IMG/VR virus record: IMGVR_UViG_3300029305_005988
Span: 59,096-123,095 of that record
Origin: a virus
Lineage: Duplodnaviria > Heunggongvirae > Uroviricota > Caudoviricetes
Direction: 5' to 3' (one strand)
DNA length: 64,000 bases
Within the stretch, counting starts at the first letter, position 1, and the number at the start of each line of letters is the position of its first letter. Below the pieces are notes generated by a model, which saw only the letters and a program-made list of their open reading frames with translations, ran no database searches and had not been told where the DNA came from. Below are positions 3,596-60,219 of the stretch, in pieces. The position numbers and the translations under genes were made by a program.

Positions 3596-3778
3596 ATGAT
3601 TAAATGTCCAAATTGCGGTAGCACCGCACAACCCGAGCCTTTTGAGGTACAATATCATGAAGATGGTTGGACTATATATGTAGAGCGTTGGTATCGTTGT
3701 GGCTGTGGACACGGCTTTGTTACCTCTACAACCTACGAAAGTGATGGAGATGAGGAAATTATAGATGCGTGCATTTAG
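3596..3778 (+). CDS. zinc-ribbon protein (60 aa; CPNCG...CGCG); terminates at TAG (would extend 5 codons to TGA if TAG is sense)
   Basis: ORF, Cys pairs; stop is TAG, which is otherwise unused as stop in this window. Confidence 0.45.
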   Translation: MIKCPNCGSTAQPEPFEVQYHEDGWTIYVERWYRCGCGHGFVTSTTYESDGDEEIIDACI

Positions 3779-4019
3779 AACCTTTTTCAACCTTGACCGC
3801 CCTTATGAGTTCGATATCACAGACCTCACCGCCTTAATTTATACAATATGCGCCATAGGCGGTATGATGGGCGCAAACATGACAATACTATGGTGCATTG
3901 GCGCAACAATCGCAACCGCTTTCTGTTGGGAAGCGCGCAAAATCAACCTTGTAGTTCTCAATCTCGCCCTTTGGGTGATGAATATGTGGAACTTATTTCA
4001 AATGATAATCGGAGGTTAA
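3765..4019 (+). CDS. small membrane protein (84 aa)
   Basis: hydrophobic ORF overlapping previous stop. Confidence 0.45.
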   Translation: MRAFRTFFNLDRPYEFDITDLTALIYTICAIGGMMGANMTILWCIGATIATAFCWEARKINLVVLNLALWVMNMWNLFQMIIGG

Positions 4020-9587: not shown

Positions 9588-9618
9588 ATGGAAAGGCGCT
9601 TAATTCGCGCCTTTCTTT
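9588..9618. terminator. bidirectional terminator hairpin aaaggcgcttaattcgcgccttt
   Basis: T/A runs on both sides; closes minus-strand module. Confidence 0.5.
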
Positions 9619-9701
9619 AGTCTCCAGTCTGACACTAATATTGGACAGTCTCCAAACTCTGACTTAAAGCGCAAACGCGCCGCAGCAAAGTATCCTTTTT
9701 C

Positions 9702-10274
9702 TTTAGAGATGTCTTCGCCCTGCTCTTGACGATAAAAAGCATTAGCTGCTTCAGACTCAGATATATGTTCTTCAAACATAATTTGGCGCCAACGTTCTAG
9801 AATCTATTGATCAAGAGGTTCGTATGTGCTATACCATACCCAGCGCCTAACGCCATTAGATTCTCCATATTCATCAAATACGGGACCAACATAGCGCTTA
9901 CTTACACCCTGTACATTATCATGCCCATACTTCTCTCTGCCAAAAGCGCATAACGCTTCACGAGTAGTTTTAGCTTTGCTATTAGGCTTAAACTCAGTAC
10001 CAAGCGCAGCAATAGTAAACATCTTGTAATCTTCTTGTTTTTGCGCCGTAGAAATTAAATTCTTGCGCGGTAAAGGTTGATAGGTGCCATAAATCTCATT
10101 AATTTTAATACGAATTGGGCGCCCATCCAATAATTCATAGTCATAGAAGTTGCTAATATGTTCTAACAACTCTTCTCTACGGGACTCCCATTGATTCTTT
10201 TTAATACCTGTCAATAGCCAGAATTCTTTTTTAAAGTCATAAATGTGTCCTACTTCAATTTGCATATTATTCAC
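9702..10274 (-). CDS. hypothetical protein; in-frame TAG at 9804-9806 (157 aa to TAG, ~190 aa if read through to TAA 9702)
   Basis: ORF 9804-10274 plus 34 open codons after TAG; RBS aaaggagtgaataat. Confidence 0.45.
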
Positions 10275-10459
10275 TCCTTTCTTAATTGATAAATAGCAAC
10301 TTCTCCTGAAAATTTGTCCTTATCTATAATATATATAGGGACAAAAATTAGGGTAGAAGTTTCTCAGGAAGACTTCTTCCTATTCATATTTATATTAAAA
10401 AAGCAATAGATAAATTAACTAATTTTGACCAAGCGCCGAACCTCGATTTATACTTCTTA

Positions 10460-10590
10460 AACCTGGACCCGCGCCAAAAAAGAGGTATGCGTTAGCATAC
10501 CCCTAGGGCGCCGATCTCTCCTTTATATCGACGCCCTCTCCTTTATCTCCTAGTCCATAGTATTATTAACCTGGACCGGCGCTTACATCA
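10460..10590. repeat. direct repeats aacctggacc(c/g)gcgc x2 and ctctcctttat x2
   Basis: seen in intergenic region of minus module. Confidence 0.4.
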
Positions 10591-10945
10591 ATCCTTTGAA
10601 GAAATCTTCATCATTAAACTTCTCTTGCATCTTCAATAGCTGAACATACATAGGGATCATCTTCTCCATCTTAATGATTGCGGTCTCCAGCTCCTTGATA
10701 TCTTCTTCAGTCCACTCTTCTCCATCTTCAAAGAGGTCAAATGCCTCAGTATATGCGAGAACTGCATTAATCAAATAGGCGCGGCCTTCTTGGAGAAGAT
10801 CTTCTTTACTCTTTTGATTTGCAGCAGCTTCTTGCTCTGCGCGCAATGCTTCTTCTTGTCTAGCTTTTTCTGCGCGGATGTCGGCTAGCGTCTTTTCAAT
10901 TTCCTCTTCAGAAGCTCCATTCCAGATCATTTCTTCAATATTCAT
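10583..10945 (-). CDS. hypothetical acidic coiled-coil protein (120 aa)
   Basis: ORF; AT-rich-class promoter on minus strand at ~10955-11010. Confidence 0.5.
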   Translation of the reverse strand: MNIEEMIWNGASEEEIEKTLADIRAEKARQEEALRAEQEAAANQKSKEDLLQEGRAYLINAVLAYTEAFDLFEDGEEWTEEDIKELETAIIKMEKMIPMYVQLLKMQEKFNDEDFFKGLM

Positions 10946-10954
10946 TAGTTTATA

Positions 10955-11010
10955 TCTCCTTTACTTTTCTATATATATTATATCATATTTTTTATATTAT
11001 TTCAATAAGG
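10955..11010 (-). promoter_or_regulatory. minus-strand promoter (ttgaaataatataaaaaatatgatataat)
   Basis: reverse complement matches second promoter class. Confidence 0.45.
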
Positions 11011-11111
11011 AAGACGAAGACGAGGGATGGGAGATGGTGGTTCTGGAGTCGGTTGCACCACACATCCACACTCTCTTATGCTCTCTTATATTTTTTTATA
11101 TTTTCTTATAA

Positions 11112-11372
11112 TTATAATACAATCTCCCACCACTTTGTATCTTCACTTAATATTCCTTCTTCTTGCAATCTTACTGTATACCAATATCTTGCATCAATTT
11201 CTTTTAACATCTCTTCTCTATCCACATTGTTTTCAATCATATCTTCTAATCTTTCTATCCATTTATTCTATTCTTCTACTATTACCACTCCTGCATGACT
11301 TAAACAATTAATCTAATCTTCATATTCCTTTTTTGCTTCTGGATATTTCTCCAACAACTCTTTTAACATCAT
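11112..11372 (-). CDS. hypothetical protein (86 aa) with 2 in-frame TAG
   Basis: RBS aaggagggttatagaatgatg; MMLKELLEKYPEAKKEYED*INCLSHAGVVIVEE*NKWIERLEDMI...; ends TAA. Confidence 0.45.
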
Positions 11373-11386
11373 TCTATAACCCTCCT

Positions 11387-12099
11387 TAAAAATTAAATCC
11401 AGCAATTTTCTTCTTTATCTCATCCTCATCTTGATCGTGGACGCAGTCCACGGGAGGGATAGACGAAGTCTTTCCCGACAAATTCTAATTATAATCATAA
11501 TTCTAATTATAATCATAATTCTAATAAGGAAACTTTGGAAACTTGGAAACATTTCCAGTTTCCTTAATTCCATCACAACTTTCCAAACTTTCTTGGAAAC
11601 TTTCAGAAACATTATCTACAATTTCCATATTTCCTAATGTTTCCAAACTTTCTTGGAAATTTCCAATGTTTCCAGAAATTTCTGGAAACTTTCCTAATGT
11701 TTCCTTATTTTCCAGTAAATGTGGAAACTCTGTGCGGATTTTTGTAAACATTTTTGATACTGCTGGCGGCTGAACTCCAAGCTCGCGGGCAATTGCCGCC
11801 TGTGTCATACCACTATTTTTCATTTCAATAATTCTACGATATTTCTCTTCAGAAGCAGCTATTTTAGCATCGTACCTATTCTTGCTTTGCGCAATTCTAT
11901 CTACATATCCTTCAAGAGCATCTTCAATATTCATATCATCACTACTAATATCTCCAGTAAGTATAGCTTCTAAAAAACTAATTGCATACTCTCCACCTTT
12001 AACAGGGTCTCTTTGATACCACTTCTTTGCCGTTTCAAACATCTTTCCATATACAATACCACTTTTTCTTACAGGATTGTTTTTAAACTCTTTAATCAT
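11387..12099 (-). CDS. HTH-containing protein (MTQAAIARELGV) with repetitive C-terminal tail; TAG at 11521-11523 (core 11521-12099 = 192 aa)
   Basis: ORF 11521-12099; if TAG is sense, extends through 18-bp tandem repeats (QNYDYN x2) to TAA abutting next RBS. Confidence 0.5.
11461..11520. repeat. 18-bp tandem repeat aattctaattataatcat x~3
   Basis: seen directly. Confidence 0.7.
11530..11700. repeat. repeat-rich block (ttccaaactttcttggaaa / tttccagaaatttctggaaa variants)
   Basis: multiple direct/inverted copies seen; encodes SFQESLE-type repeats. Confidence 0.6.
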
Positions 12100-12123
12100 T
12101 TCCGATACCTCCGATCCCTTATT

Positions 12124-12300
12124 TTAAACCTAAGACAATTTGCGCATAGCCTCTTGTAACTCAAGACTATCTTCAAATACATAATTATCAAAATAAGGCT
12201 TCTTCTCGTCAGGTACCACTCTAATAATCTTAAATCCCAACTTGCGCAATTCATACGCCATTTTTCGAGTGTAAATCACTCTTTCATTCATTTGATCCAT
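12124..12300 (-). CDS. hypothetical small protein (~58 aa); TAG-GTT-TAA at 3' end
   Basis: MDQMNERVIYTRKMAYELRKLGFKII...; starts overlapping previous TGA. Confidence 0.4.
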
Positions 12301-12484
12301 TTCCGTTTACGCGGCGCAAATAGTTCTCTAATTGCTACTTCACCCAAGCGGCAGGCGCATCCCTGTTGATAAACTTATAAAGCTAATCAGGATTATCTAA
12401 TTTTGCCTCTTGCGCAATCAACTTATAAGTATAACCTTTTACGCGCATCTCCTTTAACTAAAATATTATTTCTTCACGAGTCAT
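12288..12484 (-). CDS. small HTH protein (65 aa) with 3 in-frame TAG
   Basis: MTREEIIF*LKEMRVKGYTYKLIAQEAKLDNPD*LYKFINRDAPAAWVK*QLENYL...; RBS gaaaggagttagaaatg. Confidence 0.45.
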
Positions 12485-12509
12485 TTCTAACTCCTTTCAC
12501 TATTATATA

Positions 12510-12580
12510 AAAATTAAGGTAGTAATTGTATCTATTTTTGTCCAAATTTTTTACCATAATACTACCTTAATTTGCCAATT
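12510..12580. repeat. inverted repeat aaggtagta...tactacctt (9-bp arms)
   Basis: seen; possible operator/terminator between minus genes. Confidence 0.4.
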
Positions 12581-12745
12581 TTTCGACGATATGTTCTTTT
12601 CATGTTTTTTCTTATCTCGTCATCTTTAATTGATCTGCAACAATCTGTTGTTATTCCACCTTTTTTCAAAAGCAAATTCAATTAAAATCGTAACAAAATC
12701 GTGTTGGTTTGAAATGCGCCTAATCTTGCCCATTGGCGCCTTTTA

Positions 12746-13102
12746 TTAACAGCCATAAGTCTTCTTTATATCATGAGTAGCATATTCCAAATGGTCAGTC
12801 ATTGCGCGAATATTTGAAAGATCAAACTGTGTAACAACCTCATCTTCATTCTAATCTAATCGCCGCTCTAAAGCATTTACTCTATCCACTAACTTATCTA
12901 CATTAGCTTCAGCGCTAATTAATCTCCAAATCAAATCTCGTAAATCATAATCAGCATCTCCAATGTGAATGATAATAGTCTGCTCTCGAAGAATAGATCT
13001 TGGAAGACCACTTAACATCTCATAATCAATCACTTCTTGTTCACATGTAATATCAACAGGCTAAGACATAAAAATCTCTTTATCAAAACTATCTATCATC
13101 AT
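12746..13102 (-). CDS. hypothetical protein with 2 in-frame TAG (ORF 12851-13033 extended both ways)
   Basis: MMIDSFDKEIFMS*PVDITCEQEVIDYEMLSGL...RRLD*NEDEVVTQF...; ATGA overlap with upstream gene. Confidence 0.4.
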
Positions 13103-13515
13103 TCTACCTCTCTTTTATAGTGTAGTGTTTTAAGCGCCGATCGTAGCTCAGAGCATTCTTTTTTAGGCACAAAATTCTTCTTAAGGTCATTGATTTGCGC
13201 ATCTATCCTCTTAATTTCTGTAATAAGGCTATCAGTTATATTTTCAATAGCATAGTCATTAGCCTTAATAACTCCACTACAATACAAATTACCGCTATTC
13301 GCACTAGCTATTCCATAAGCGGTGTTGCTTCCTTCAGTTGCTAAATCAAAAGTACAATCAACCTCCGTCGCAGAGTCCGCGCTGAGACTTAAACTGCAAT
13401 CTTTAATATATCCCTTCATTACCTCATCACCGTTTGCACTATAACAAGCAACCGAGTAGGGTCTATTAAAACTATCTCCAAACCATGCTTCATTTGTTTT
13501 CTACCAAATAGCCAT
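13099..13515 (-). CDS. hypothetical protein (138 aa) with TAG at codon 5; C-terminal LKTLHYKREVE motif
   Basis: MAIW*KTNEAWF... joins ORF 13099-13419; C-terminus shared with 32256-32477. Confidence 0.5.
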
Positions 13516-13516
13516 T

Positions 13517-13994
13517 ATTTACCTCCACTCTTTTCGCTACAAATTCCAATATTTATCATATAATCCAATAACCCCAACTGTTTTATAATGGTGCGCTCGG
13601 CGCCTTCAGGCAGCTTGTGGTCAAAAAATAATTTAATTTCATAGTTATCTCTTTCAAATGGCGACAATGCTTCAACTTCTCCCTGCTCATAATCAATAAC
13701 TAAAAGCTAATCTCCATTATCGAAACAGGTAATCACTTTTCCATCTAATTGAAGCGCACTTTTTATTCCAATTTCAGCTTTAGCATGTGCCTCTATATCC
13801 ATTTGCGCAAGGTCTTGAATATATTTACTGCCTTTTGCGCCAATCATAATGTATTTAGTTGGAGTATATGGTGTAAAATCTATGCTTTCTTTCTCGCAAA
13901 GCCGCTATAGGCGCCGATTCTTCACTATTAGTCGCCCATAGTCAAACCCAATATATGTCAATATCAAAAATAAAAACAATCCCGTCCAGAACAT
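13517..13994 (-). CDS. membrane-anchored hypothetical protein (~159 aa) with 2 in-frame TAG
   Basis: MFWTGLFLFLILTYIGF... hydrophobic N-terminus; RBS aaaaggagaagcagatg. Confidence 0.4.
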
Positions 13995-14109
13995 CTGCTT
14001 CTCCTTTTATCTCTTTAATCTTTTATACACTTTAATTATACAATAAAATTAAAATAAAGTCAAGTGTTCCTTCCCATCAGCACCTTTTCAATTACCTTTT
14101 ATTTTCTAA

Positions 14110-14160
14110 TTGATTTTTTGAAAAAAATATGATAAAATATATGTGTAAATAAAAGAAAGA
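14110..14160 (+). promoter_or_regulatory. AT-rich-class promoter (ttgattttttgaaaaaaatatgataaaat)
   Basis: second promoter class consensus TTGATTTTTAATAAAAATTATGWTATAAT. Confidence 0.5.
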
Positions 14161-14174
14161 GAGGAAATGAATAA

Positions 14175-14486
14175 ATGAGTATTCGAGTAAATGCAATTCA
14201 TGTTATTAACATTGACGACATTTGTGACGAATTCAATACTTCTGGTAGAGATTATAAATTTTTAGAGGGCGCCGAAAATGGTAGTTATACATTTTTAAAC
14301 ACAGACGAAGATGCTCTTGAAGAAGCTCGTAATGAACTTGATGCTGCAATGGAAAGATGCGCTCAATCTGAAAGCAAAATATGGGAAAGTAAAAAGTTAT
14401 ATGAAGCAGAAGTAATGTATGACCTCATTAACTATTTACACTATGCTGGTTATAAAGACGGCGTTCTTGTTTACACAGCTTGGTAA
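14175..14486 (+). CDS. hypothetical protein (103 aa)
   Basis: ORF+RBS. Confidence 0.5.
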   Translation: MSIRVNAIHVINIDDICDEFNTSGRDYKFLEGAENGSYTFLNTDEDALEEARNELDAAMERCAQSESKIWESKKLYEAEVMYDLINYLHYAGYKDGVLVYTAW

Positions 14487-14528
14487 GCGCACTGGAAAAA
14501 TTTGGAAATTCGCAAAGGAGTAGTTAAT

Positions 14529-14771
14529 ATGAATACCATCAAAGTAACTGTTGGAAATCATTTTTATCATGGAGTTATTGAAGAATTTATCTGCTCAAAT
14601 GTAGATATCTCTGATCTTGAAGAAATGGAATATTGCGCAGAAGAATGCGTAGGTCAATATATGGAAATGCATGAGGATATCGCGCACGGCTATTGCCCCG
14701 ATGTCTCATATGAAGATCTCGTAGAAGCGTGTTATTATTCTATTGAGGAGGTTAATACAAATGAACTTTAA
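14529..14771 (+). CDS. hypothetical acidic protein (80 aa)
   Basis: RBS aaaggagtagttaatatg. Confidence 0.45.
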   Translation: MNTIKVTVGNHFYHGVIEEFICSNVDISDLEEMEYCAEECVGQYMEMHEDIAHGYCPDVSYEDLVEACYYSIEEVNTNEL

Positions 14772-15249: not shown

Positions 15250-15414
15250 ATGGTTCAAGGTGTTTGTAGCAATTGCGGCGCTAGTTTCTATCTTAATCTA
15301 GAAACAATTAAAGAATATGCACAAGAGCATAATCAAAAATTAAATGAGGGTGTTGAAGTATGGTGTCCTCATTGCAATGCAGTGCATCTGCTTCGTTTAG
15401 AAGATAAATAGTGA
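15250..15414 (+). CDS. zinc-ribbon protein (54 aa); ends ...TAG TGA
   Basis: CSNCG...CPHCN; TAG immediately followed by TGA. Confidence 0.45.
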
Positions 15415-20417: not shown

Positions 20418-20425
20418 TTCATATA

Positions 20426-20498
20426 GGGAATTAGTTTAACAGTAGAATGACTGTCTCCAAAACAGTAGGCTGCGGGGCAGCACCGTAATTCCCTGCCA
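20426..20498 (+). ncRNA. degenerate tRNA-like (Trp CCA-type anticodon arm, no canonical T-arm)
   Basis: acceptor gggaatt/aattccc 7/7, stem actgt/acagt, loop ctccaaa; T-region replaced by ctgcggggcag. Confidence 0.3.
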
Positions 20499-23075: not shown

Positions 23076-23201
23076 GGAGTGGTAGCCCAACAGGCAGAGG
23101 CAATGGACTTGTCTGATGTTCGGTAACCTAGACTGGGTCAGCACCAGTATCAGGCACCAAAAATCCATCAAGTGAGGGTTCGAATCCCTCTCACTCTACC
23201 A
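23076..23201 (+). ncRNA. 126-nt tRNA-like gene with 55-nt insertion in anticodon loop
   Basis: acceptor ggagtgg/tcactct, D-arm gccc..ggc, anticodon stem atgga/tccat enclosing 55 nt, T-arm gaggg/ttcgaat/ccctc, CCA; own upstream promoter. Confidence 0.4.
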
Positions 23202-23713: not shown

Positions 23714-23864
23714 CTTACCCGTGAGTAGTGGGGCTCTCGGCATCGCCAGTAAATAGCTACTCAAACTCCCAACGGTAGAGCAAATGACCAGAACTAGGAG
23801 TTAAAATAAACGAGACTAAGGATGTGCGGCTGACAACCTACTGTCATTACATATGCGAGTTTAG

Positions 23865-23939
23865 TTCAGAAGTAGAATACCGCTCTGATAAAGCGGGGGT
23901 GCTTGGGGCAGTACCAAGAATTCGCACCAAAACTCAAGA
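23865..23939 (+). tRNA. tRNA-Ile(GAT) with non-canonical T-loop ggcagta
   Basis: stem ccgct/agcgg loop ctgataa; acceptor gcgagtt/aattcgc; CCA. Confidence 0.55.
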
Positions 23940-24324: not shown

Positions 24325-24402
24325 GGGGGACTAGCTCCAATTGGCTAGAGCACGACACCTGCAATGTCGGGGTTATGGGTTCGAATCCCATGTCCTCCAC
24401 CA
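24325..24402 (+). tRNA. tRNA-Ala(TGC)
   Basis: G3:U70 present; loop cctgcaa; T-arm atggg/ttcgaat/cccat; CCA. Confidence 0.65.
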
Positions 24403-24500: not shown

Positions 24501-25265
24501 ATGACATCAGGAATTTATATGTATTAGAACAAGGTTAATGGACAGTGCTATATTGGATAGGCAATAGACCTTGCACGGAGAAAAAAAGACCATAAAACAA
24601 GAGCCTTTAATGAATTTGAGGGTAATAATGAGTATAATTCAGTAATACATTAGGCTTTTAGAAAATATGGTTATGATAATTTTGAATATTCAGTATTAGA
24701 AGAATGTGAAATATCTTTGCTTAATGAAAGAGAACGATATTGGATTGCTTATTATAATTCTTATAAAGTTGGATATAATTGTGATGAAGGTGGCAATACT
24801 GCAAGACATTTTTGTAAATTTAATGCAGATATATTATAGGCATTAAAAAATGATTTACAAGAAACAAAAGATACCTATGAAATATTAGCAGCTCGATATG
24901 GAGTGTCCATTGGATATGTAAGCGATATTAATAATGGAAAAATATGGCATCAAGATGGTGTAATTTATCCATTACGGAAAAAGCAGTCTAAAAGTATTCA
25001 ATATTGTTCTTTATGTGGAGTTGAGATTTCTGGAGAAGGACAGACGGGCTTATGTGTTGCCTGTGCAAATGCAAGATATAGAAAAGTAGAACGTCCAACT
25101 CGAGAAGAACTAAAATATCTTATTAGAAATTTTACTTTTGTAGAAATTGGTAAGCAATTTGGAGTTGCAGATAACACTATTAAAAAATGGTGTAAAGCAA
25201 TGAATTTACCTTCTCGTAAAAAAGATATTAATTTATATTCAAACATAGAGTGGGAAGCTCTTTAA
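24501..25265 (+). CDS. GIY-YIG homing endonuclease with C-terminal HTH/Zn module; 4 in-frame TAG (24525, 24558, 24651, 24837)
   Basis: MTSGIYMY*NKVNGQCYIG*AIDLARR...; paralog 45405 has Q where this has TAG (FHQAIRKYG vs IH*AFRKYG); ORF 24903-25265 is its tail. Confidence 0.7.
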
Positions 25266-25280
25266 CTTTCCACCAAGATA

Positions 25281-25358
25281 TGGAGTCGTTAGTTCAGTAG
25301 GTTAGAACGCCAGATTGTGAGTCTGGATGTCGTCAGTTCGAGTCTGACACCTCTCCCC
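25281..25358 (+). tRNA. tRNA-His(GTG) (extra 5' G; 2 acceptor mismatches)
   Basis: stem ccaga/tctgg loop ttgtgag; T-arm gtcag/ttcgagt/ctgac; CCA. Confidence 0.45.
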
Positions 25359-25529
25359 ATAAAAACTGAGTCCATCTGATGCGGCACCAGCGCTCAGGAA
25401 AGTAGGATGGATAAAAAGCATTAGCCCAGACATCTGCGGGAAAGCGCTCCTGACAAGTACCGACCGAAAGCGAAATGCGGGATAAGTGAACAGCACCTTA
25501 TCATTTACATAATAACAAAGGAGCAATAT

Positions 25530-26199: not shown

Positions 26200-26275
26200 G
26201 CTGTGATAATTCAATTGGGAGAAGAGCCGGCGTCAAGCAGGCTAGTTGTGGGTTCGAGTCCCACTCACAGGTCCA
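26200..26275 (+). tRNA. tRNA with UCA-centred anticodon loop (cgTCAag, G33) - opal-reading/Sec-like candidate or mis-parse
   Basis: acceptor 6/7 (G1-G72 mismatch); T-arm gtggg/ttcgagt/cccac; CCA; anticodon stem gccgg/caggc with one mismatch. Confidence 0.3.
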
Positions 26276-42220: not shown

Positions 42221-42319
42221 TGGGGGGTCGCTTAATGGTCATAGCAGCGGTCTCTAAAACCGCCAGAGCCTACGGGTCTGCTCCGTAGTATGTGGGTTCG
42301 AGTCCCACCCCCCCAGCCA
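42221..42319 (+). tRNA. amber-suppressor tRNA(CUA), Gln-type identity, with 28-nt extra (variable) arm
   Basis: stem gcggt/accgc loop ctCTAaa; U1:A72, G73, tc-gct D-arm as in tRNA-Gln; variable arm ctacgg-gtctgct-ccgtag hairpin; T-arm gtggg/ttcgagt/cccac; CCA. Confidence 0.6.
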
Positions 42320-42321
42320 AT

Positions 42322-42357
42322 TGTGCCTCCTTCGTGAGCTTTGAAGGAGGCTTTTAA
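42322..42357 (+). terminator. rho-independent terminator
   Basis: gcctccttcgtgagctttgaaggaggc+tttt. Confidence 0.65.
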
Positions 42358-43049: not shown

Positions 43050-43901
43050 ATGACTTATACTCTAAAAAATGGTGAGACTATTGAATCTATACCAATTGGA
43101 CGTTCCTCTGTGATTATAGGAGAAAAAAGTCCAAGTGGAATGCTAACAGTTTGTGATCGAGGCCCTGCTCCTATTAGCGGGAGAGGCGCCACCGTAATCT
43201 GTCAATGCTAGTGCGGAAAATATACTCTTATTAAATTAAATGAGTTGCGAACAGGTAATACTAAATCTTGTGGTTGTTATGCACAAGAAAAAGCAAAAGA
43301 AAATGGTAAATATGTAGGCTCTTTACCTAAAAAAGCAAAAGATTATACACTTATAGATAATCCTTTTTATACTTTTATTCAAAGAACAGATAAAAAAGAT
43401 ATTTCAAATAGTTTCTTTTGGATAGTACAGTGTAAAAGATGCGGCAAACAATATGAAGAAGTGCCTTCTCAAATTATTTCTACCACTCGAGCACGAGGCA
43501 ATAATCCTTGTAGTTGTTGGAAACATTTAAGTAAAGGAGAGCAAAAGATCATAAATCTGCTTTTAAATAACAATATTTCCTTTTCACAACAAGTGACTTT
43601 TAAAGATTGCCTTTCTCCACTAGGGAACCCTTTAAAATTTGATTTTTTTATTGAACAAAAGTATTTAATTGAATTTGATGGTGAGTAGCATTTTTTACCT
43701 CAACAATTTGGAAATAACGAATCTGGAGAAGAAAAATTAAAGCTTACTCAAGAATACGATGCAATTAAAAACCAATGGTGTAAAAATAATGGAATTCCGC
43801 TAATAAGAATTCCTTATACTCATTACAGTCAATTAAATATTAAAGATTTATTATTAGAAACAAGTAATTTTATATTAAAGGAGAAAATAAATGCCGAATA
43901 A
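43050..43901 (+). CDS. Zn-finger + Vsr/DUF559-like (PD-(D/E)XK) endonuclease, HEG-like; 2 in-frame TAG (43209, 43686)
   Basis: RBS aaaaggagatgaataaaaatg; ...VICQC*CGKY...KFDFFIEQKYLIEFDGE*HFLPQQFGN...; ORF 43245-43688 is the middle segment. Confidence 0.5.
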
Positions 43902-45171
43902 AATTTATAATGAAGATAGTACGCAACATATATCTCCTCGAGAGTTTACACGAAAAAGACCTGGTACCTATTGTGGTTCAACCGAGTATAGCACACAGCT
44001 TATTCGAGAGCTATTCGCCAATGCTTTAGATGAACACAATATAGGCCATGGTAATGTAATTTCAATCGAGGCTGATACAAAAAAGAACTTGTATACGGTT
44101 ACAGACTTAGGACAAGGCTTTATCCCTGGCGCGCCAAGAGAAAATGGGGAAACAATGTTTTCAGAATGTTTCTCGGTTATTAATACTTCAGGCAAGTATG
44201 ATGATGCTGATGATTCGATCTATGGTGGAAGTGCTCTAGGACTCAATGGTATAGGCATGAAGTTAGTCTGTTACCTTTCAAGCTGGTCTCAAGCTACAAC
44301 AACCAATGGCAGCGGCAAGAGAGAAACAATTACCTATAAAGATGGTTTGTTTGAATCGCGTCAAATTACCGACGAAAAGAAAGATATTCACGGTACAACA
44401 ATTAGTTATCAACCAGATCCTCAATTCTTCCAGCATCAAGAAGCAAACTTTGACGAGTTGAGAAAGATGTTTACCGACATCGCCGCACTTTGCCCCATGC
44501 TTACTATTGAACTTACTGTTGACGGAAAAAAAGAAATATTCCACTCTTCAAGAGGTTTAAATGACTTGATTGATGCAAAAGTTGGTGATAATGAAATTCT
44601 TTCAAATCGTTTTATTGCGCGTAGAGAGTCGGGCGCAGATCTCTTTGATATTTGCTTAACTTATACTTCTAATTATTCAGAAGATGTAACGGGTTATGTT
44701 AATTTTGGTTTAACTGAAAGCGGCGTTCATATGACGGCTTTGAGAACTAATTTAACAAGACTAATTAATAAATTTGCGAATGATAAAAAGATGTTTAAAG
44801 CAGGAGAGTCAAATCTTACTGGACAGGAGCTCTCTGAAGGACTTGTAATTATTTTCAATCTTAAAGCAAAAAAGGTTGCTTATGATAGCCAGTCAAAAGT
44901 AAGAGTTGTTGACATTGATAAGACATTGATTAATCAGACTCTAAGTGAAGACTTTGCTCAATGGCTTGAGTCTAATCAAAAGGATGTTAAAATTATTATT
45001 GACAAAGCGCTAAGTGCTCGTAGAGCAAGAGAGGCTGCTAAAAAGGCGCGCGACGCGGCTCGAGGCGACAAAAAGAAAAAGGAAAAGGCGCTTAAGTTTG
45101 ACTCTAAACTAGCAGATTGTTATTCAAAGGTTCGCGCCAACTGTGAGATCTATGTAACTGAGGGTAAGTGA
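43891..45171 (+). CDS. gyrB: DNA gyrase/topo II subunit B, exon 1 (GHKL ATPase + transducer), ends inside TOPRIM motif
   Basis: GHKL ATPase motifs; ...CEIYVTEG then K-stop from intron. Confidence 0.8.
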   Translation: MPNKIYNEDSTQHISPREFTRKRPGTYCGSTEYSTQLIRELFANALDEHNIGHGNVISIEADTKKNLYTVTDLGQGFIPGAPRENGETMFSECFSVINTSGKYDDADDSIYGGSALGLNGIGMKLVCYLSSWSQATTTNGSGKRETITYKDGLFESRQITDEKKDIHGTTISYQPDPQFFQHQEANFDELRKMFTDIAALCPMLTIELTVDGKKEIFHSSRGLNDLIDAKVGDNEILSNRFIARRESGADLFDICLTYTSNYSEDVTGYVNFGLTESGVHMTALRTNLTRLINKFANDKKMFKAGESNLTGQELSEGLVIIFNLKAKKVAYDSQSKVRVVDIDKTLINQTLSEDFAQWLESNQKDVKIIIDKALSARRAREAAKKARDAARGDKKKKEKALKFDSKLADCYSKVRANCEIYVTEGK

Positions 45172-46273
45172 AAACTATTGCCCGAATCCTTTTTACCATT
45201 AATCAGTGGGGTCACAATTATTGTGGCTAACGGGGAAAGCTGACCATTACACAGATATGTCAAAATCTGTTTAGGTGAAGTCAATCCCGTGGCAAAATTT
45301 TAAAATTTTTAGGTCAAATCTTGATAAATTTCTTACTCTCACTTTCATATATAAATAGAAGGAGACAGAGTACTTCTAATATATTTGAAATAAGGAGAAT
45401 AATAATGATTGGAATTTACAAGTACACAAACAAAATTAATGGGAAACACTATATTGGATAGAGCATTAATTTAGAAATGCGCAAATATGCACATAAATCT
45501 TCTGCTTTTAATGAAAATGCTAAAGATTATAATGCTCAATTTCATCAAGCAATTCGTAAATACGGTTGGGATAATTTTGATTATGAAGTAATCGCAGAGT
45601 TAACCCCAGAAGAATATACGAAAGAAGGACTTGATGCCTTAGAAAGATATTTTATTAAATATTACGACTCTTTTCATAATGGCTATAATGCCACCGAAGG
45701 CGGAGATGATAATCCACTTAGGGCGCAAAAAGGCTCTGCCAATGGGCGTGCGCTTTTAACAGAAGAGGATGTTATTTATATTAGAGAATGTTATAATGCA
45801 CATATTCCTTTTAGAGAGGTTTATGCAGAGTATCAAGATAAAATATCTAAAAGAGGGCTTCAAAAAGTATGGTGGTTTGATACATGGAAAGATATCTATC
45901 CAGAGTATCATACAGAAGAAAATAAAAAATGGCATGCTACAAAAGCAAAAGCTAATGCTTCAGAGGTTGCCGCAAATAATAAACGCAGTTTTACCGAAGA
46001 AGAAGTTAAAAAAATGAGAGAAGAGTACGACAATGGAATGTCACCAAAGCAAATTTGGCTAAGATATGCACCAGAGAAAGCTTGGTCGACAGTTTATAAT
46101 GTTGTAACAAGACAGACCTATAAAGATATTTAAAATAAGCTGTATCGACTATCCCGAGTGAGATCGGGAGTAGAAATGTTATTGATACGCATTTCGAAAT
46201 AGAGGACACGATGATGACCTGACAAGTCGGAGTGAAGAGATAGTCAGTGCCTATAGAAATATAGGAGCACATG
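45166..46273 (+). mobile_element. group I-like intron in gyrB carrying GIY-YIG HEG
   Basis: 5' exon ends ggT, intron ends atG; splice restores YVTEG|DSASGN = TOPRIM EGDSA motif; candidate P1 pairing gggu/gccc. Confidence 0.55.
45405..46133 (+). CDS. intron-encoded GIY-YIG homing endonuclease with in-frame TAG at 45459
   Basis: MIGIYKYTNKINGKHYIG*SINLEMRKYAH...GYNATEGG; ORF 45477-46133 is its body. Confidence 0.7.
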
Positions 46274-46912
46274 GATAGTGCGTCTGGAAACCTTAAGTCA
46301 GCTCGAAACAATGAGTTCCAGGCTGTAATGCCAGTTCGAGGTAAAATCCTTAATTGTCAAAAGAATACGCTGGATAAGATCCAAAAGAACGCAGAGATTA
46401 TGACTATGATTGAGGCATTTGGTCTTAAAGCAGACCCTAAGACGATGAAACTTACCTATGACAAAGACTCACTGCGTTATGGCAAGATTATTATAGCTGC
46501 TGATGGAGATGCTGATGGTAGCCATATTCGAAACCTGTTTTATACTTTTATCTGGAACTTCTGTCCGCAACTTATTCAAGAGGGATATGTGTATGCTCTT
46601 GTAGCGCCGCTCTATAAGATTACGATGGGTAAAGATACTTATCTATATTTAAGAGACGATAAAGAATTGGCTGAGTTCCAAGAGAAAAATAGAGGAAAAA
46701 AGTATCAGGTCAATAGATTTAAGGGATTAGGTGAAATGTCAGAGGACGAGACTGAAATTCTTGTAGACCCAGGCTTAAGAGTGCTAAATCAGGTTGCGGT
46801 TGAAGAAGCAAAGAAAGCAGATGTCTTATTTGATCAATTGATGGGCGTTGGGGTTGCAGCGAGAAAGAAGTTTATTCAGGATCATAGCAAGGAGGCTAAA
46901 TATGGAGTATAA
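46271..46912 (+). CDS. gyrB: DNA gyrase/topo II subunit B, exon 2 (TOPRIM + tail)
   Basis: DSASGN...PVRGKILNCQKNT...IIIAADGDADGSHIRNL ~ GyrB EGDSAGGS...PLKGKILNVEKAR...IMTDADVDGSHI. Confidence 0.75.
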   Translation: MDSASGNLKSARNNEFQAVMPVRGKILNCQKNTLDKIQKNAEIMTMIEAFGLKADPKTMKLTYDKDSLRYGKIIIAADGDADGSHIRNLFYTFIWNFCPQLIQEGYVYALVAPLYKITMGKDTYLYLRDDKELAEFQEKNRGKKYQVNRFKGLGEMSEDETEILVDPGLRVLNQVAVEEAKKADVLFDQLMGVGVAARKKFIQDHSKEAKYGV

Positions 46913-52351: not shown

Positions 52352-52429
52352 ATTTTATTATATAATTATAATATCACAATAGCAGAATAAATCTGCAAAT
52401 ATTAAGATATAAAAGGAGATTTAAGGCAA

Positions 52430-52680
52430 TGGCACTTAAAGAAAATTCACTCGTAATTTTTAATTATGTAAAAGATCACAAGGATGAAGATATCACAGCA
52501 GCTGATATTGCATAGGCAACAAACATCCCTGTAAAATCAGTAAACGGTTCTATCACAGCAATGGCTAGACACCATGAGCTTATGTATCGTGAAGAGGTTC
52601 CTGTAACTGGCGGTAAGGTGAAATATATTCGCCTCACTGATAAGGGACTTGATTACGATCCTACGGCAGATGCAGAGTAA
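52430..52680 (+). CDS. winged-helix DNA-binding protein (83 aa) with in-frame TAG at 52513
   Basis: MALKENSLVIFNYVKDHKDEDITAADIA*ATNIPVKSVNGSITAMARHHEL...; RBS aaaaggagatttaaggcaatg; missed by ORF track. Confidence 0.45.
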
Positions 52681-52734
52681 TTAAAAAAGGAAATAAGGGG
52701 TAATTGAATAAATTACCCCTTAAATTGTAAAAAT

Positions 52735-53926
52735 GATAGCATTATGTGTAATATCAATTCTTCTTGGCGCAGGCGGTCTTGCTTATGGAGTATGGACTAA
52801 AGCCACATCTGGAAAGGTTAACCGCTATACAATAGAAGAAAATTAGAAACTAGAAGAACTCAATTAGTCATTACATGCAACTCGCAAAAGTCTAGAAGCT
52901 CAAAATGACTTATTGATAAAATCTAACAATGAAATTTCTCAAAGGTATGAAGAGAACTGTAAAAAAACAAAAAATTCTTACGACGAATTAAATCAATTAA
53001 CTCAATAGAAATTAAAGTTAATAGATGAAATTCAAATTAAACAAATTGAAAAAGCGGGAGTGGAAGCGCAAATCACTGCTTTAAGTAGCTCTGTAGAAAC
53101 AATGTCAGGCGACTTAAAGGTAGCTGCTCGCGCATCATTCGAACAATATTGTGATGCTCTTGATTATGAGTATAAGAAAAAAGAACAAGAGTTCGATACA
53201 GAAATAGATACTCTTGATCAACTATACTTTAATAGATTACAAGAGCTTGATGCAAGAGAAAAAGGATTAATTGAAGAGCGTAGACAAGATATTGAGATAC
53301 TTGCAAAACTATTCTATGATAAGCAACAATCAATGTCTAAAGAGTTGCAAGAAGAAGAAGCGGCAATGCGCGCCGATCTAGATTCAATTCGTAAAGAGCT
53401 AGAAAAAATTCGTGCAACTAAGGCCGCCGCGATGGAGGCACAGTTACGCGAAGAAGAAATTAAAAACAAAGCAACATTTTATACCCTTCAGCTTAATGAT
53501 GCAGATAAGCGCGATGTTGCATATCTTCAAAGCATTGAATATAACTTGCGCGAACCAAGACCTTTACGCATGCTTATATGGTCTACATTCTATCGAGATA
53601 AAGTCAATGACCTTGCGGCGCGCGTAGGCGCGTTGGGCGCAAGTGGAATATATAAGCTAACCCATATTGACTCTGGTATATCGTATATCGGTCAAGCTAA
53701 GGACATTAAAGAGCGTTGGGTAACACATGTTAAATGCAGCTTGGGTATCGACACCCCTGTAACAAGTCAACTCTATGCATTTACAAGAGAAAAGGGTATT
53801 GACAACTTTACTTTTGAAGTATTAGAGAAATGCAGTATAAATGAATTAAATGAAAAGGAGAAGTTTTATATCGACCTTTATCAAACATATGATTTTGGAT
53901 TGAATAAAACTCGCGGAAATGGATGA
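52735..53926 (+). CDS. TM-anchored coiled-coil protein with C-terminal GIY-YIG nuclease domain; 3 in-frame TAG
   Basis: MIALCVISILLGAGGLAYGV... then 3 TAG, joins ORF 53060-53926 (GIYKLTHIDSGISYIGQAKDIKERW). Confidence 0.5.
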
Positions 53927-56526: not shown

Positions 56527-57561
56527 ATGGCAGATTTTAACTTACTTGATATTCAACCTCACTAGGTTTCACGAGATATGCGCGGTTATTGCGTCTTCTT
56601 CTATGGAGACGCAAAGACCGGCAAAACCACTACCGCGACTAAATTCCCTAATCACCTTTTGGCAGCTTTTGAAAAAGGATATAATGCAATTCCTGGCGCC
56701 ATGGCACAGCCTATCAATAGCTGGTCTGAGTTTAAGAAATTCCTGCGCCAGTTAAAGAATGAACAGGTTAAGGCTAAATTCGAAACAATTATCGTAGACA
56801 CTGCAGATATTGCCTATGACTATTGTGAGAAATATATTTGCGCCAATGTTCAGCGCCCAGACGGTTCTATTGGAGTAGACAATATCGCAGATATTGGTTA
56901 TGGAAAAGGCTTTAAAATGGCGGCAAAAGAGTTTGATGATGCGCTCCGTTCAATCCTTCAAATGGGTTACGGTTTAGTAATTATCTCTCACGCGCAAGAT
57001 AAGACCTTTAAAGATCAGAATGGTAATGAATACAATCAAATTGTTCCAACTCTTGATAACAAGCCTCGTAATATTGTAAATCGTATGGCAGATATTATTG
57101 GTTATGCAAGAAATGTTGAAACTGAAAATGGTGAAAAAGATGTTAAACTCTTTATGCGCGGAACTCCTCGTTTCGTAGCAGGAAGCAGATTTAAATATAC
57201 ACCCGACTATATTGACTTCAACTATAATGCACTTGTTAACGCAATAGGCGATGCTATTGATAAACAGGCGGCTGAAGATGGAACTCAATACTTCACAGAT
57301 ACGGGATCTAATTTGCACACATTTGTTTCAAAGGAACTCGACTTTGACGAACTTATGATGCAGTTTAACTCAATGATTCAAGACCTTTCAATCAATAGTG
57401 ATGAAGAAACATTCAAAACCTATTGGCAACCTCGTATTAGCCAGTGTATAGAGAAGTATCTCGGCAAGGGGCAAAAAGTTTCTCAATGTTCTCGTGAACA
57501 GACAGAAGCACTTGATCTTATAGTTACGGAACTTAGAGATTTGATAAATACAGCTCAATAA
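56527..57561 (+). CDS. RecA-superfamily recombination ATPase (Sak4-like); in-frame TAG at 56563
   Basis: good RBS gaggtaagtaaaaatg at 56527; MADFNLLDIQPH*VSRDMRGYCVFFYGDAKTGKTT (Walker A); ORF track starts at internal ATG 56578. Confidence 0.55.
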
Positions 57562-58678: not shown

Positions 58679-60219
58679 GCAAAAGTAAATATGTAGATAC
58701 CGCCGCAATAATGCAAGTAATCGGCGCTATCTATATTCAACCTTCACTTTTAGATAACGAAAATTATCACTTCCATGAAGAGGATTTTTGTGAAGACTTT
58801 CATGTGACTCTTTTTGGAACTATATATAATCTTCATGCGCTCGGCGCCAAGGAGATAACTCTCAACGCAATAGAAGACTATCTTGCACAGCGCCCCAAGC
58901 GCCAAGCAATATATAAAGCGAATAAGGGCGCAGAATATCTTGAGCAGCTTAAAGAAGCTACACAATTAAGCGCTTTTCAGTATTACTATGATAGAGTTAA
59001 AAAGATGACGCTCTTGCGCATGTATAATGAACGCTGTGGAATGGATTTATCGTGGCTCTATGATATGGATAATATCTTCGATGCAAAGAAAAAACAAGCG
59101 CAAGAGGACTGGTTAGATAGCACACCTCTTGTAGAAATCGCAGATTTAATTGATAAAAAGATAGATGATGTTAAGTCAATTTATGTAGATAATTGCGAAG
59201 CAGATATTGTTCAGGCTGGCGCCGGTGTAGAATTGCTTCTTGAGCAATTAAAACAGAATCCTGAACTCGGTTACCCATTATATGGCAAATATATCAATAC
59301 TATTTTCCGCGGCGCGCGCTTGAAAAAATTTTACTTACGCTCAGCCGCAACGGGTGTTGGTAAAACGCGTTCAATGGTAGCAGATGCGTGTTATATTGGA
59401 TGTGGCTCTATGTATAGTATTGAAGAGCGCACTTGGATAAACACGGGTGAACCTCAAGCGACTCTTTATATTGCAACAGAGCAAGAGTTATCAGAAGTTC
59501 AAACTATGATGATAGCATTTTTGTCTGGTGTTAATGAGGAACATATTGTGACGGGTGAATATCTTGAAGGTGAATGGGAGCGCGCGCTCCATGCTGCGCA
59601 ACTCCTAAAGACTGGAAAGATCTATTTTGAAGCACTTCCAGATTTCTCGTTGCAAGACATTGAGAATGTTATTAAGAAAGGCATTAGAGAGAATGATATC
59701 AAGTATGTCTTCCACGACTATATCCACACTAGTATGAAGATTCTCGAAGAGATTACTCGAAGAAGCGGCGGTGTGCGCCTTAGAGAAGATAATATCCTCT
59801 TTATGATTTCCGTAAGACTTAAAGACTTGTGCAACCAGTATGGAATATTCATAATGTCTGCGACTCAGTTGAGCAATGATTATCACGAAGCAGAGGTTTA
59901 TGACCAAGGACTTCTTCGTGGCGCAAAATCTATAGCAGATAAAATAGATGCTGGATCTATTTTACTTGAAGCGACGGATAAAGATAAAGAAGCGCTGGCG
60001 CCTTTGGTTAAGCGTCTTGGGTGTGAGATGCCAGATATTAAGATGTCGATTTATAAGAATAGACGAGGTCGCTGGAAAAATGTTCTAGTTTGGATTAAAT
60101 CAGATCGTGGTATTTGTAGATTGGATCCGATATTTGTGACTAAATATAGCTATGAATTAGTTGATATAGAGGACTTTAAAATAAATGTAAAAAAGAGCGT
60201 TGATTTATCAGCGTTTTAA
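58675..60219 (+). CDS. dnaB: DnaB-like replicative DNA helicase
   Basis: N-terminal DnaB-like domain; Walker A SAATGVGKT; RecA-fold motifs. Confidence 0.7.
   Translation: MSKSKYVDTAAIMQVIGAIYIQPSLLDNENYHFHEEDFCEDFHVTLFGTIYNLHALGAKEITLNAIEDYLAQRPKRQAIYKANKGAEYLEQLKEATQLSAFQYYYDRVKKMTLLRMYNERCGMDLSWLYDMDNIFDAKKKQAQEDWLDSTPLVEIADLIDKKIDDVKSIYVDNCEADIVQAGAGVELLLEQLKQNPELGYPLYGKYINTIFRGARLKKFYLRSAATGVGKTRSMVADACYIGCGSMYSIEERTWINTGEPQATLYIATEQELSEVQTMMIAFLSGVNEEHIVTGEYLEGEWERALHAAQLLKTGKIYFEALPDFSLQDIENVIKKGIRENDIKYVFHDYIHTSMKILEEITRRSGGVRLREDNILFMISVRLKDLCNQYGIFIMSATQLSNDYHEAEVYDQGLLRGAKSIADKIDAGSILLEATDKDKEALAPLVKRLGCEMPDIKMSIYKNRRGRWKNVLVWIKSDRGICRLDPIFVTKYSYELVDIEDFKINVKKSVDLSAF

Follow-up and report, generated by a model that had tools for sequence, protein, structure and literature searches.

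The DNA analysed here, 64 kb of an uncultured member of the Caudoviricetes (positions 59,096 to 123,095 of the IMG/VR record IMGVR_UViG_3300029305_005988; hereafter the window, meaning the whole stretch), very probably uses genetic code 15, as judged from its sequence: TAG would be read as glutamine (Gln), TAA and TGA would be the sole terminators, and the codon would be decoded by a phage-encoded tRNA with anticodon CUA, tRNA(CUA). The window has 39% GC and nearly all of its genes are on the plus strand. It contains 29 in-frame TAGs in 16 ATG-started, otherwise intact genes, and in these genes TAG is a sense codon equivalent to the Gln codons. Gln as the most likely residue had already been proposed in an earlier reading of the same letters (the original prediction), and it is supported by homologs, by codon swaps between orthologs, by the ratio of nonsynonymous to synonymous substitutions (dN/dS) of a TAG-bearing gene (0.14-0.16) and by the CUA tRNA.

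That gene, at 24501-25265 on the plus strand, codes for a GIY-YIG homing endonuclease, as indicated by its translation, its Pfam match, its homologs and its orthologs. It has 254 codons, begins with ATG, ends in TAA and contains no other TAA or TGA; in-frame TAGs are at codons 9, 20, 51 and 113 (nt 24525, 24558, 24651 and 24837). A run of 254 codons free of TAA and TGA has a chance probability of about 3e-6 at this composition. The Pfam GIY-YIG match (28.9 bits, cut-off 22.6) covers residues 4-90 and crosses three of the TAGs, and there are 65 full-length homologs of about 250 amino acids, one of them named 'group I intron endonuclease' by its source. The gene is flanked by a tRNA-Ala (24325-24402) and a tRNA-His (25283-25359). 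Orthologs were found on two other metagenome contigs (L001 and L002) with 84-87% nucleotide identity; both have 255 codons, end in TAA and contain six TAGs each, at positions that partly differ from those of the window. At codons 15 and 20 TAG is swapped with CAG or CAA, and this happens in both directions. The dN/dS of these TAG-bearing orthologs is 0.14-0.16, so the homing endonuclease is under purifying selection.

Over the whole window TAG behaves as a sense codon rather than as a terminator. With code 11, 10 of the 87 open reading frames (ORFs) with coding signal end in TAG, but seven of these are pieces of longer genes that emerge once TAG is read through, and the remaining three have a TAA or TGA within 0-5 codons. 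When TAG is read through there are 82 curated genes, 53 ending in TAA and 29 in TGA, which bears out the earlier claim that no confident gene terminates with TAG. TAG terminators thus number 0-3 of 82, against 17.8% expected from the trinucleotide share (P(<=3 of 82) = 1e-4). The lone exception that had been named, the ORF at 3596-3778, does end in TAG, with a TGA five codons later (small ORF 3596-3796, plus strand). Two sites put forward as places where TAG is not acting as a stop are also present, 'TAG TGA' at 15409-15414, where a small zinc-ribbon-like ORF ends (15250-15414, plus strand), and 'TAG GTT TAA' at 12124-12132 on the minus strand. After 30 coding-like codons, the frame and its coding signal continue for at least 30 codons beyond TAG in 9 of 23 cases; the same measure gives 1 of 77 for TAA and 0 of 34 for TGA. 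Gene calling with code 15, suggested earlier as a check, gave the highest summed coding score (5809 with TAG as sense, followed by 5559 with code 11, 5151 with TAA as sense and 5125 with TGA as sense) and raised the coverage of the minus-strand module described below from 53% to 79% and that of the endonuclease region from 40% to 85%. A crude comparison of ORF lengths between codes was dropped in favour of these coding-score tests, since dropping any stop codon lengthens ORFs and the comparison does not discriminate. Furthermore, in L099, a 23.5-kb ENA contig syntenic with the window at 47-64 kb, all 28 called genes stop at TAA or TGA.

The amino acid was assigned from the homologs of four genes that could be aligned across their TAGs: the GIY-YIG endonuclease, a Vsr/DUF2726-like endonuclease (43050-43901, plus strand; TAG at codons 54 and 213), a Sak4-like/AAA_24 recombination protein (56527-57561, plus strand; TAG at codon 13; Pfam AAA_24 E = 2e-39; 120 homologs) and the minus-strand gene 9600-10265, for which 67 full-length homologs were aligned across its TAG. 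The Vsr/DUF2726-like protein has full-length homologs of 283-284 amino acids with identities up to 73%, about 50 of the 120 aligned being full length. Three of the TAG columns are nearly invariant and all three are Q: codon 20 of the GIY-YIG gene (YIG-Q-A, 64 of 65 homologs), codon 213 of the Vsr/DUF2726-like gene (DGE-Q-H, 115 of 120) and codon 13 of the Sak4-like gene (PH-Q-VSRD, 114 of 120). The log-odds sum over seven TAG columns, from which we left out the three closest homologs because they are themselves translated with code 15, is +13.8 bits for Q, with E next at -3.1 and S not among the six best-scoring residues. This is what came of aligning homologs at the TAG positions, as had been proposed.

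The same residue is indicated at the DNA level, where TAG to CAA or CAG (or the reverse) is the commonest type of swap among true orthologs. In the Sak4-like gene the swap is reciprocal, with CAA in the window and TAG in L099 at codon 10, and TAG in the window and CAA in L099 at codon 13. The gene at 52733-53926 (plus strand) codes for a transmembrane/coiled-coil protein with a C-terminal GIY-YIG domain (found by Pfam) and has TAGs at codons 38, 45 and 92; its L099 ortholog is full length and 76% identical, with CAG opposite the TAG at 52844, the TAGs at 52865 and 53006 kept, and a TAG opposite the window CAA at 53882. A small helix-turn-helix (HTH)-like gene (52429-52680, plus strand) has TAG at codon 29, where the L099 ortholog has GAG. 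Swaps of TAG with GAG or GAA were seen at four sites in the ortholog comparisons. A first cross-locus tally of the residues opposite TAG was discarded for contamination with shadow ORFs, and curated orthologs were used instead. The ortholog swaps, the full-length frames and the stops of L099 together practically rule out assembly error as well as pseudogenes, and establish Gln as the residue. The original prediction had considered it not fully settled between Q and L, a doubt that arose from distant paralogs; the true orthologs give Q.

The probable decoder lies within the window as well and was absent from the original prediction. It is an amber suppressor tRNA at 42221-42319 (plus strand), with the anticodon loop CUCUAAA, the anticodon CUA and an encoded CCA. 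ARAGORN labels it '???(taaa)', an impossible four-base anticodon, but the Rfam tRNA model matches with 56.3 bits and the minimum-energy fold is a normal cloverleaf with 7/5 acceptor/T stems. The acceptor end has U1-A72, G2-C71, G3-C70 and G73, and the tRNA also has G10 and U35. These acceptor features are the ones that mark tRNA-Gln, and by its sequence the acceptor end is of the Gln type. Actually, the start and end of the molecule (UGGG...CCCAGCCA) are shared, among the window tRNAs, only with tRNA-Gln(UUG). The gene stands apart from the main tRNA cluster, at a distance of 10 kb, with the RNase H gene on one side and a small gene on the other. Just 5' of it there is a promoter-like site, TTGATT-17-TATAAT (42166-42194, plus strand), a consensus match only, and the count of such sites in this region is not above that of shuffles. 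Directly 3' there is a terminator-like GC-rich hairpin followed by a T-run (42325-42351, plus strand); no theta ribozyme of the hepatitis delta virus (HDV)-like type was found after the tRNA above the Rfam threshold, the plain terminator being there instead. A tRNA(CUA) is found at the same relative position in three relatives (L054, L081 and L091), and an identical anticodon stem-loop is present in the tRNA(CUA) of 51 other viral contigs.

The tRNA can be compared with well-known suppressors. Escherichia coli supE (glnV) has a tRNA-Gln body with anticodon CUA and the same U1-A72, G2-C71, G3-C70 and G73, and inserts Gln at UAG. In contrast to supE, which is a mutant allele, the phage tRNA comes from a dedicated gene and carries some 25 nt of extra arm; in the window, TAG no longer serves as a terminator. 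Class II tRNAs and allo-tRNAs (with Ser identity) are characterised by a long base-paired variable arm and G73. The window tRNA shares both features but differs from them in its 7/5 stems, its Gln-type 1:72 pair, the UCUG at the tip of its arm and the Q, not S, found at TAG.

Recoding of TGA was also considered, given a tRNA-like gene at 26200-26275 that ARAGORN labels 'SeC(tca)', and was rejected, since TGA continues in frame in 0 of 34 cases and the gene has an anticodon stem of only 3 bp with an 11-nt loop. It matches the Rfam tRNA model with 33.9 bits and has the same T-arm as the amber suppressor. As TGA is a true stop in the window, it is unlikely to be a working opal suppressor.

The remaining TAG-bearing genes include a GIY-YIG endonuclease gene at 45405-46133 (plus strand), which is inserted into gyrB, separating its two halves, and has one TAG at the YIG-x position (codon 19). 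A minus-strand module (9600-13994; nine genes, 35% GC, inverted GC skew) adds eight more, with 15 in-frame TAGs among them. Those with TAG are at 9600-10265, 11112-11372, 11386-12099, 12124-12300, 12284-12484, 12746-13102, 13099-13515 and 13515-13994. The TAG counts given earlier for the genes at 24501 (four), 45405 (one), 43050 (two) and 56527 (one) are all as claimed. For the HTH-like and transmembrane genes the counts (one and three) were also right, and the start coordinates, given as 52430 and 52735, are actually 52429 and 52733; in the module the estimate of about eight minus-strand genes with TAG stands, whereas the estimate of about 13 TAGs falls short of the actual 15. Peptides spanning the TAG sites, with TAG read as Q, would include CYIGQAIDLAR, EFDGEQHFLPQQ and LLDIQPHQVSR.

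The module proteins gave almost no matches in Pfam and PHROGs, except for HTH-type matches to one protein, and gene 9600-10265, used as a query for related loci, found none. The module is the sole minus-strand block of the window and has its highest TAG density, and it may represent a cassette that was acquired or has its own regulation. At 11485-11523 on the minus strand there is an in-frame tandem repeat, (TAG)-N-Y-D-Y-N three times, whose unit includes the recoded codon. In the Sak4-like protein, residue 18 is Met in the window and in L099, both of which have a TAG within the first 13 codons, and Leu in most homologs (P0377-P0405). That most homologs have L and not M at this residue, together with the Q at the TAG column in 114 of 120 homologs, indicates that the start at 56527 is real. 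To judge from the sequence, initiation farther downstream, at residue 18, might yield a shorter protein while the suppressor tRNA is still missing.

Several observations weigh against the assignment of TAG to Gln or set bounds to it. Neither release factor nor aminoacyl-tRNA synthetase genes were found among the window proteins scanned. The long extra arm of the suppressor tRNA is a hallmark of Ser, Leu and Tyr tRNAs, so some mischarging is possible. TAG could still act as stop for three short ORFs. At the variable TAG columns, where the residues are polar or charged, Q is no commoner than E, K, D, T or R, so that the assignment rests on the three invariant columns and the ortholog swaps. Finally, some of the database homologs were translated with code 15 (TAG as Q), which makes part of the evidence circular; the swaps between TAG and CAA or CAG, being seen in the DNA, are independent of this circularity. 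The long arm would also be expected if TAG were sense but stood for Ser, Leu or Tyr, as class II tRNAs have such arms; Glu would fit the four sites with swaps between TAG and GAG or GAA and the column of gene 9600-10265, where E is the commonest residue among the homologs, and pyrrolysine would fit the label 'Pyl' that ARAGORN gives to CUA tRNAs. We consider any of these residues very unlikely. The three invariant columns are Q and not S, L, Y, E or K, the log-odds favour Q by about 17 bits, and CAA and CAG are the commonest partners of TAG among true orthologs. The acceptor end is of the Gln type with G73 (Leu and Tyr tRNAs have A73), and the 7/5 acceptor/T stems do not have the shape of a Pyl tRNA or an allo-tRNA. 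Pyrrolysine decoding was therefore rejected on the normal cloverleaf with its long arm, on the conserved columns and on the absence of pyl genes among the window proteins scanned, and a Ser-type suppressor (class II or allo-tRNA) on the acceptor end and on S falling outside the top six residues at TAG, in spite of the arm.

Another possibility is that TAG is mainly a stop and that the tRNA gives a low-level read-through, the TAGs being attenuators that keep the endonuclease and module proteins scarce. The rarity of TAG in the core genes, 1% of the Gln-type codons, and the three ORFs in which TAG is followed closely by TAA or TGA would agree with this, as would the fact that amber suppressors derived from tRNA-Gln, such as E. 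coli supE, are often inefficient. We regard it as improbable, because genes with three or four TAGs would give almost no product, and yet there is strong purifying selection along their whole length; moreover, genes avoid TAG as their terminator, it occurs at codon 13 of a conserved recombination gene, and it is translated as Q in related published systems (PMC9523058). That the TAG-bearing genes are decaying pseudogenes and their TAGs ordinary nonsense mutations might be suspected from the classes in which they cluster, homing endonucleases and small uncharacterised genes, both prone to degenerate. This is extremely unlikely, given that TAG is the sole interruption and TAA, TGA and frameshifts never are, that the endonuclease keeps its full 255-codon frame with 4-6 TAGs each in the orthologs of three assemblies at a dN/dS of about 0.15, that the conserved Sak4-like gene is affected too, and that a dedicated tRNA(CUA) is present. 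Sequencing or assembly errors, once named as what could refute the recoding, have a negligible probability. We found nothing in favour of them, all 29 interruptions are the same codon, and the same or neighbouring TAG positions occur in independent assemblies from other samples (L001, L002 and L099).

The use of TAG is very uneven. Of all TAG, CAA and CAG codons, TAG accounts for 28.8% in the module, for 11.4% in the seven genes of homing-endonuclease type and for 1.0% in the 66 others. The concentration in homing endonucleases and in the inverted module, already suspected, is thus significant (Fisher, p = 1e-5 and p = 2.5e-12, respectively). The same pattern is seen in 45 related loci, where core genes have no TAG and endonuclease genes do. 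A possible mechanism would start with the phage's own tRNA, encoded at 42221-42319, which bears the tRNA-Gln recognition features (the weak U1-A72 pair, G2-C71, G3-C70, G73, G10 and U35). These acceptor features suggest that a host enzyme charges it with glutamine, either the glutaminyl-tRNA synthetase (GlnRS) or a non-discriminating glutamyl-tRNA synthetase (GluRS) followed by GatCAB. The charged tRNA would then out-compete release factor 1 at UAG. The TAG-bearing genes, mostly homing endonucleases and the minus-strand module, would be made at full length only once tRNA(CUA) is present. The skewed distribution of TAG would thus probably make their expression later or lower, and nearly all the replication genes would stay readable in the standard code of the host. 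We infer this timing role, which the original prediction had suggested as well, from the distribution of the codon. The distribution fits the published model in which early genes in standard code make the code-change machinery and recoded genes follow, and also the recoded intron endonuclease that this preprint notes in an early gene (bioRxiv 10.1101/2021.08.26.457843). The Sak4-like gene, with its TAG at codon 13, shows that replication-type genes can carry the codon too, so that it is not limited to late or dispensable ones.

The extra (variable) arm of the suppressor tRNA, with 7 bp and about 25 nt, has UCUGC at its tip. Among the long (at least 82 nt) tRNAs of the related loci retrieved, UCUG was found in the extra-arm region of 12 of 17 unique tRNA(CUA) versus 3 of 58 others. 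A scan of viral contigs for CTCTAAA...CTCT[N]AA...GGTTCGA returned 50 unique sequences; N was G in 41 of them, all tRNA(CUA)-like, and six with A or T were not tRNAs. In at least 38 other unique phage tRNA(CUA) the extra arm forms a 2-3 bp hairpin with the loop CUCUGAA, which is the anticodon loop of the same tRNA (CUCUAAA) with A36 changed to G, that is, the anticodon loop of tRNA-Gln(CUG); the window tRNA has a variant of this. The two pairs closing this loop are Watson-Crick in 38 of 38, and the second one covaries (C-G 22, G-C 15, A-U 1). As the scan fixed most of the loop, the independent evidence is limited to the G, the covariation of the stem and the contrast with other tRNAs. In the tRNAs with the CUCUGAA arm the 1:72 pair is weak or mismatched, and residue 73 is mostly G; extra-arm tRNA(CUA) loci are L091:20489-20585, L006, L033, L042 and L101-L157. 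Other class I tRNAs of these phages have extra arms too, without copies of their own anticodons. Class I tRNAs of the relatives (Lys, Ile, Thr, Trp, His, Arg and Asn) are 85-95 nt long with base-paired extra arms, for example at L054:548-634, L081:1081-1170, L004:4719-4807 and several in L137.

It is conceivable, if doubtful, that the extra arm, rather than being a neutral insertion, works as a second 'anticodon' arm, acting as a decoy identity element or as a two-conformer switch. As a decoy, the arm could permit recognition by the Gln-charging machinery even though the real anticodon no longer has G36; as a switch, one conformer could be charged as a CUG tRNA and the other decode as a CUA tRNA. 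Hypothetically, it could instead be a relic of a duplication of the anticodon arm. The observation of a CUG-displaying arm may be new; we found no description of it in the searchable literature, which is no proof that it is undescribed.

The source of the window is an uncultured large phage, and the window is its early and replication region. Its early or replication-type genes include those for gyrase A, a split gyrase B, a NAD-dependent DNA ligase, RNase H, a DnaB-like helicase, RecJ, the Sak4/AAA_24 protein, a sigma-70-like factor and an RNA ligase, as well as nucleotide-metabolism genes and several homing endonucleases. These gene types are those of early, replication and tRNA regions, and no structural or lysis genes are among them. 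Uncultured relatives, whose contigs measure 130-190 kb, are common in IMG/VR. Judged by one protein, the nearest cultured ones are Enterococcus phages, at 50% identity, and SPbeta-like Bacillus phages. The probable host belongs to the Bacillota. A megablast of 20 kb of the window against deposited phages gave no DNA match.

About 27 tRNA genes were detected with ARAGORN and the Rfam tRNA model. Among those found only by Rfam, the one at 23076-23198 (123 nt) resembles tRNA-Thr(UGU) but for some 50 nt inserted in or beside the anticodon loop, and the tRNA-Thr genes of relatives are over-long as well (85-86 nt). Two others, at 20425-20495 and 23855-23926 (apparent anticodons CCA and GAT), have odd T-loops (GGGGCAGC/UACC) without the usual UUCGA. 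The gene at 32561-35050 codes for an 829-amino-acid protein with a major-vault-protein 'shoulder' domain (Pfam E = 2e-24), which is kept in 45 related viral loci and in the huge phages LR756500-3; an exact-sequence database look-up of this protein found no record. The halves of gyrB are at 43891-45171 (N-terminal) and 46271-46912 (C-terminal), with the GIY-YIG gene 45405-46133 between them. In L099 an HNH gene interrupts the DNA ligase and a GIY-YIG gene interrupts the DnaB-like gene (L099:2895-5356 and 11939-14612), whereas both are unsplit in the window, so the insertion of endonucleases into essential genes varies within the family.

Reassignment of TAG to Gln with a phage tRNA(CUA) has been described in crAss-like phages and in the Lak, Garnet, Amethyst and Topaz clades (bioRxiv 10.1101/2021.08.26.457843; PMC7886860), including a recoded intron endonuclease within an early gene (same preprint), and mass spectrometry has proved that TAG is Q in other phages (PMC9523058). 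The finding is thus correct but of a known kind, and relatives of the window phage are already translated with TAG as Q by database pipelines. Like the code-15 phages, the window has TAG opposite Gln, TAG avoided as a stop, a phage tRNA(CUA) and early and replication genes that are mostly readable in the standard code. Unlike the crAss-like phages and the four clades, it belongs to a lineage with relatives of 130-190 kb and with SPbeta/Herelle-like replication genes; in this comparison the window covers the early region alone, and its tRNA is followed by a plain terminator instead of a theta ribozyme. Another case is phAss-1 (proposed Phassvirus, OQ749652), of 136 kb, in which TAG is also Gln (PMC10607447) and which is filed under the 'Caudoviricetes code 15 clade' of the NCBI taxonomy. 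It resembles the window phage in genome size class, in a large tRNA set with tRNA-Sup-CTA, in the reassignment itself, in a probable Clostridia/Bacillota host and in having no dedicated synthetase. The annotated Sup tRNA of phAss-1, unlike that of the window, is 74 nt in length and lacks a long arm, and a scan of 86-136 kb of its genome gave no tRNA with a CUG arm. As a close relative phAss-1 was rejected, with no megablast match and no place in the listed protein hits; the lineage is not close to it or to any deposited phage.

For this genome translation table 15 is appropriate for gene calling, since under the standard code no fewer than 16 genes come out truncated or split, including a conserved recombination protein and several homing endonucleases. 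If the CUG-displaying arm is functional, it would bear on how host enzymes charge phage suppressor tRNAs and be of interest for tRNA engineering, and a decoy or switch arm, if true, would be a previously undescribed way to build a natural suppressor tRNA. Another large-phage lineage, probably infecting Bacillota, is added to the phages that read TAG as Gln, with a view of an early region in which a suppressor tRNA, predicted to be separately transcribed, sits amid nearly TAG-free replication genes and in which the mobile endonucleases and the inverted module would depend on it.

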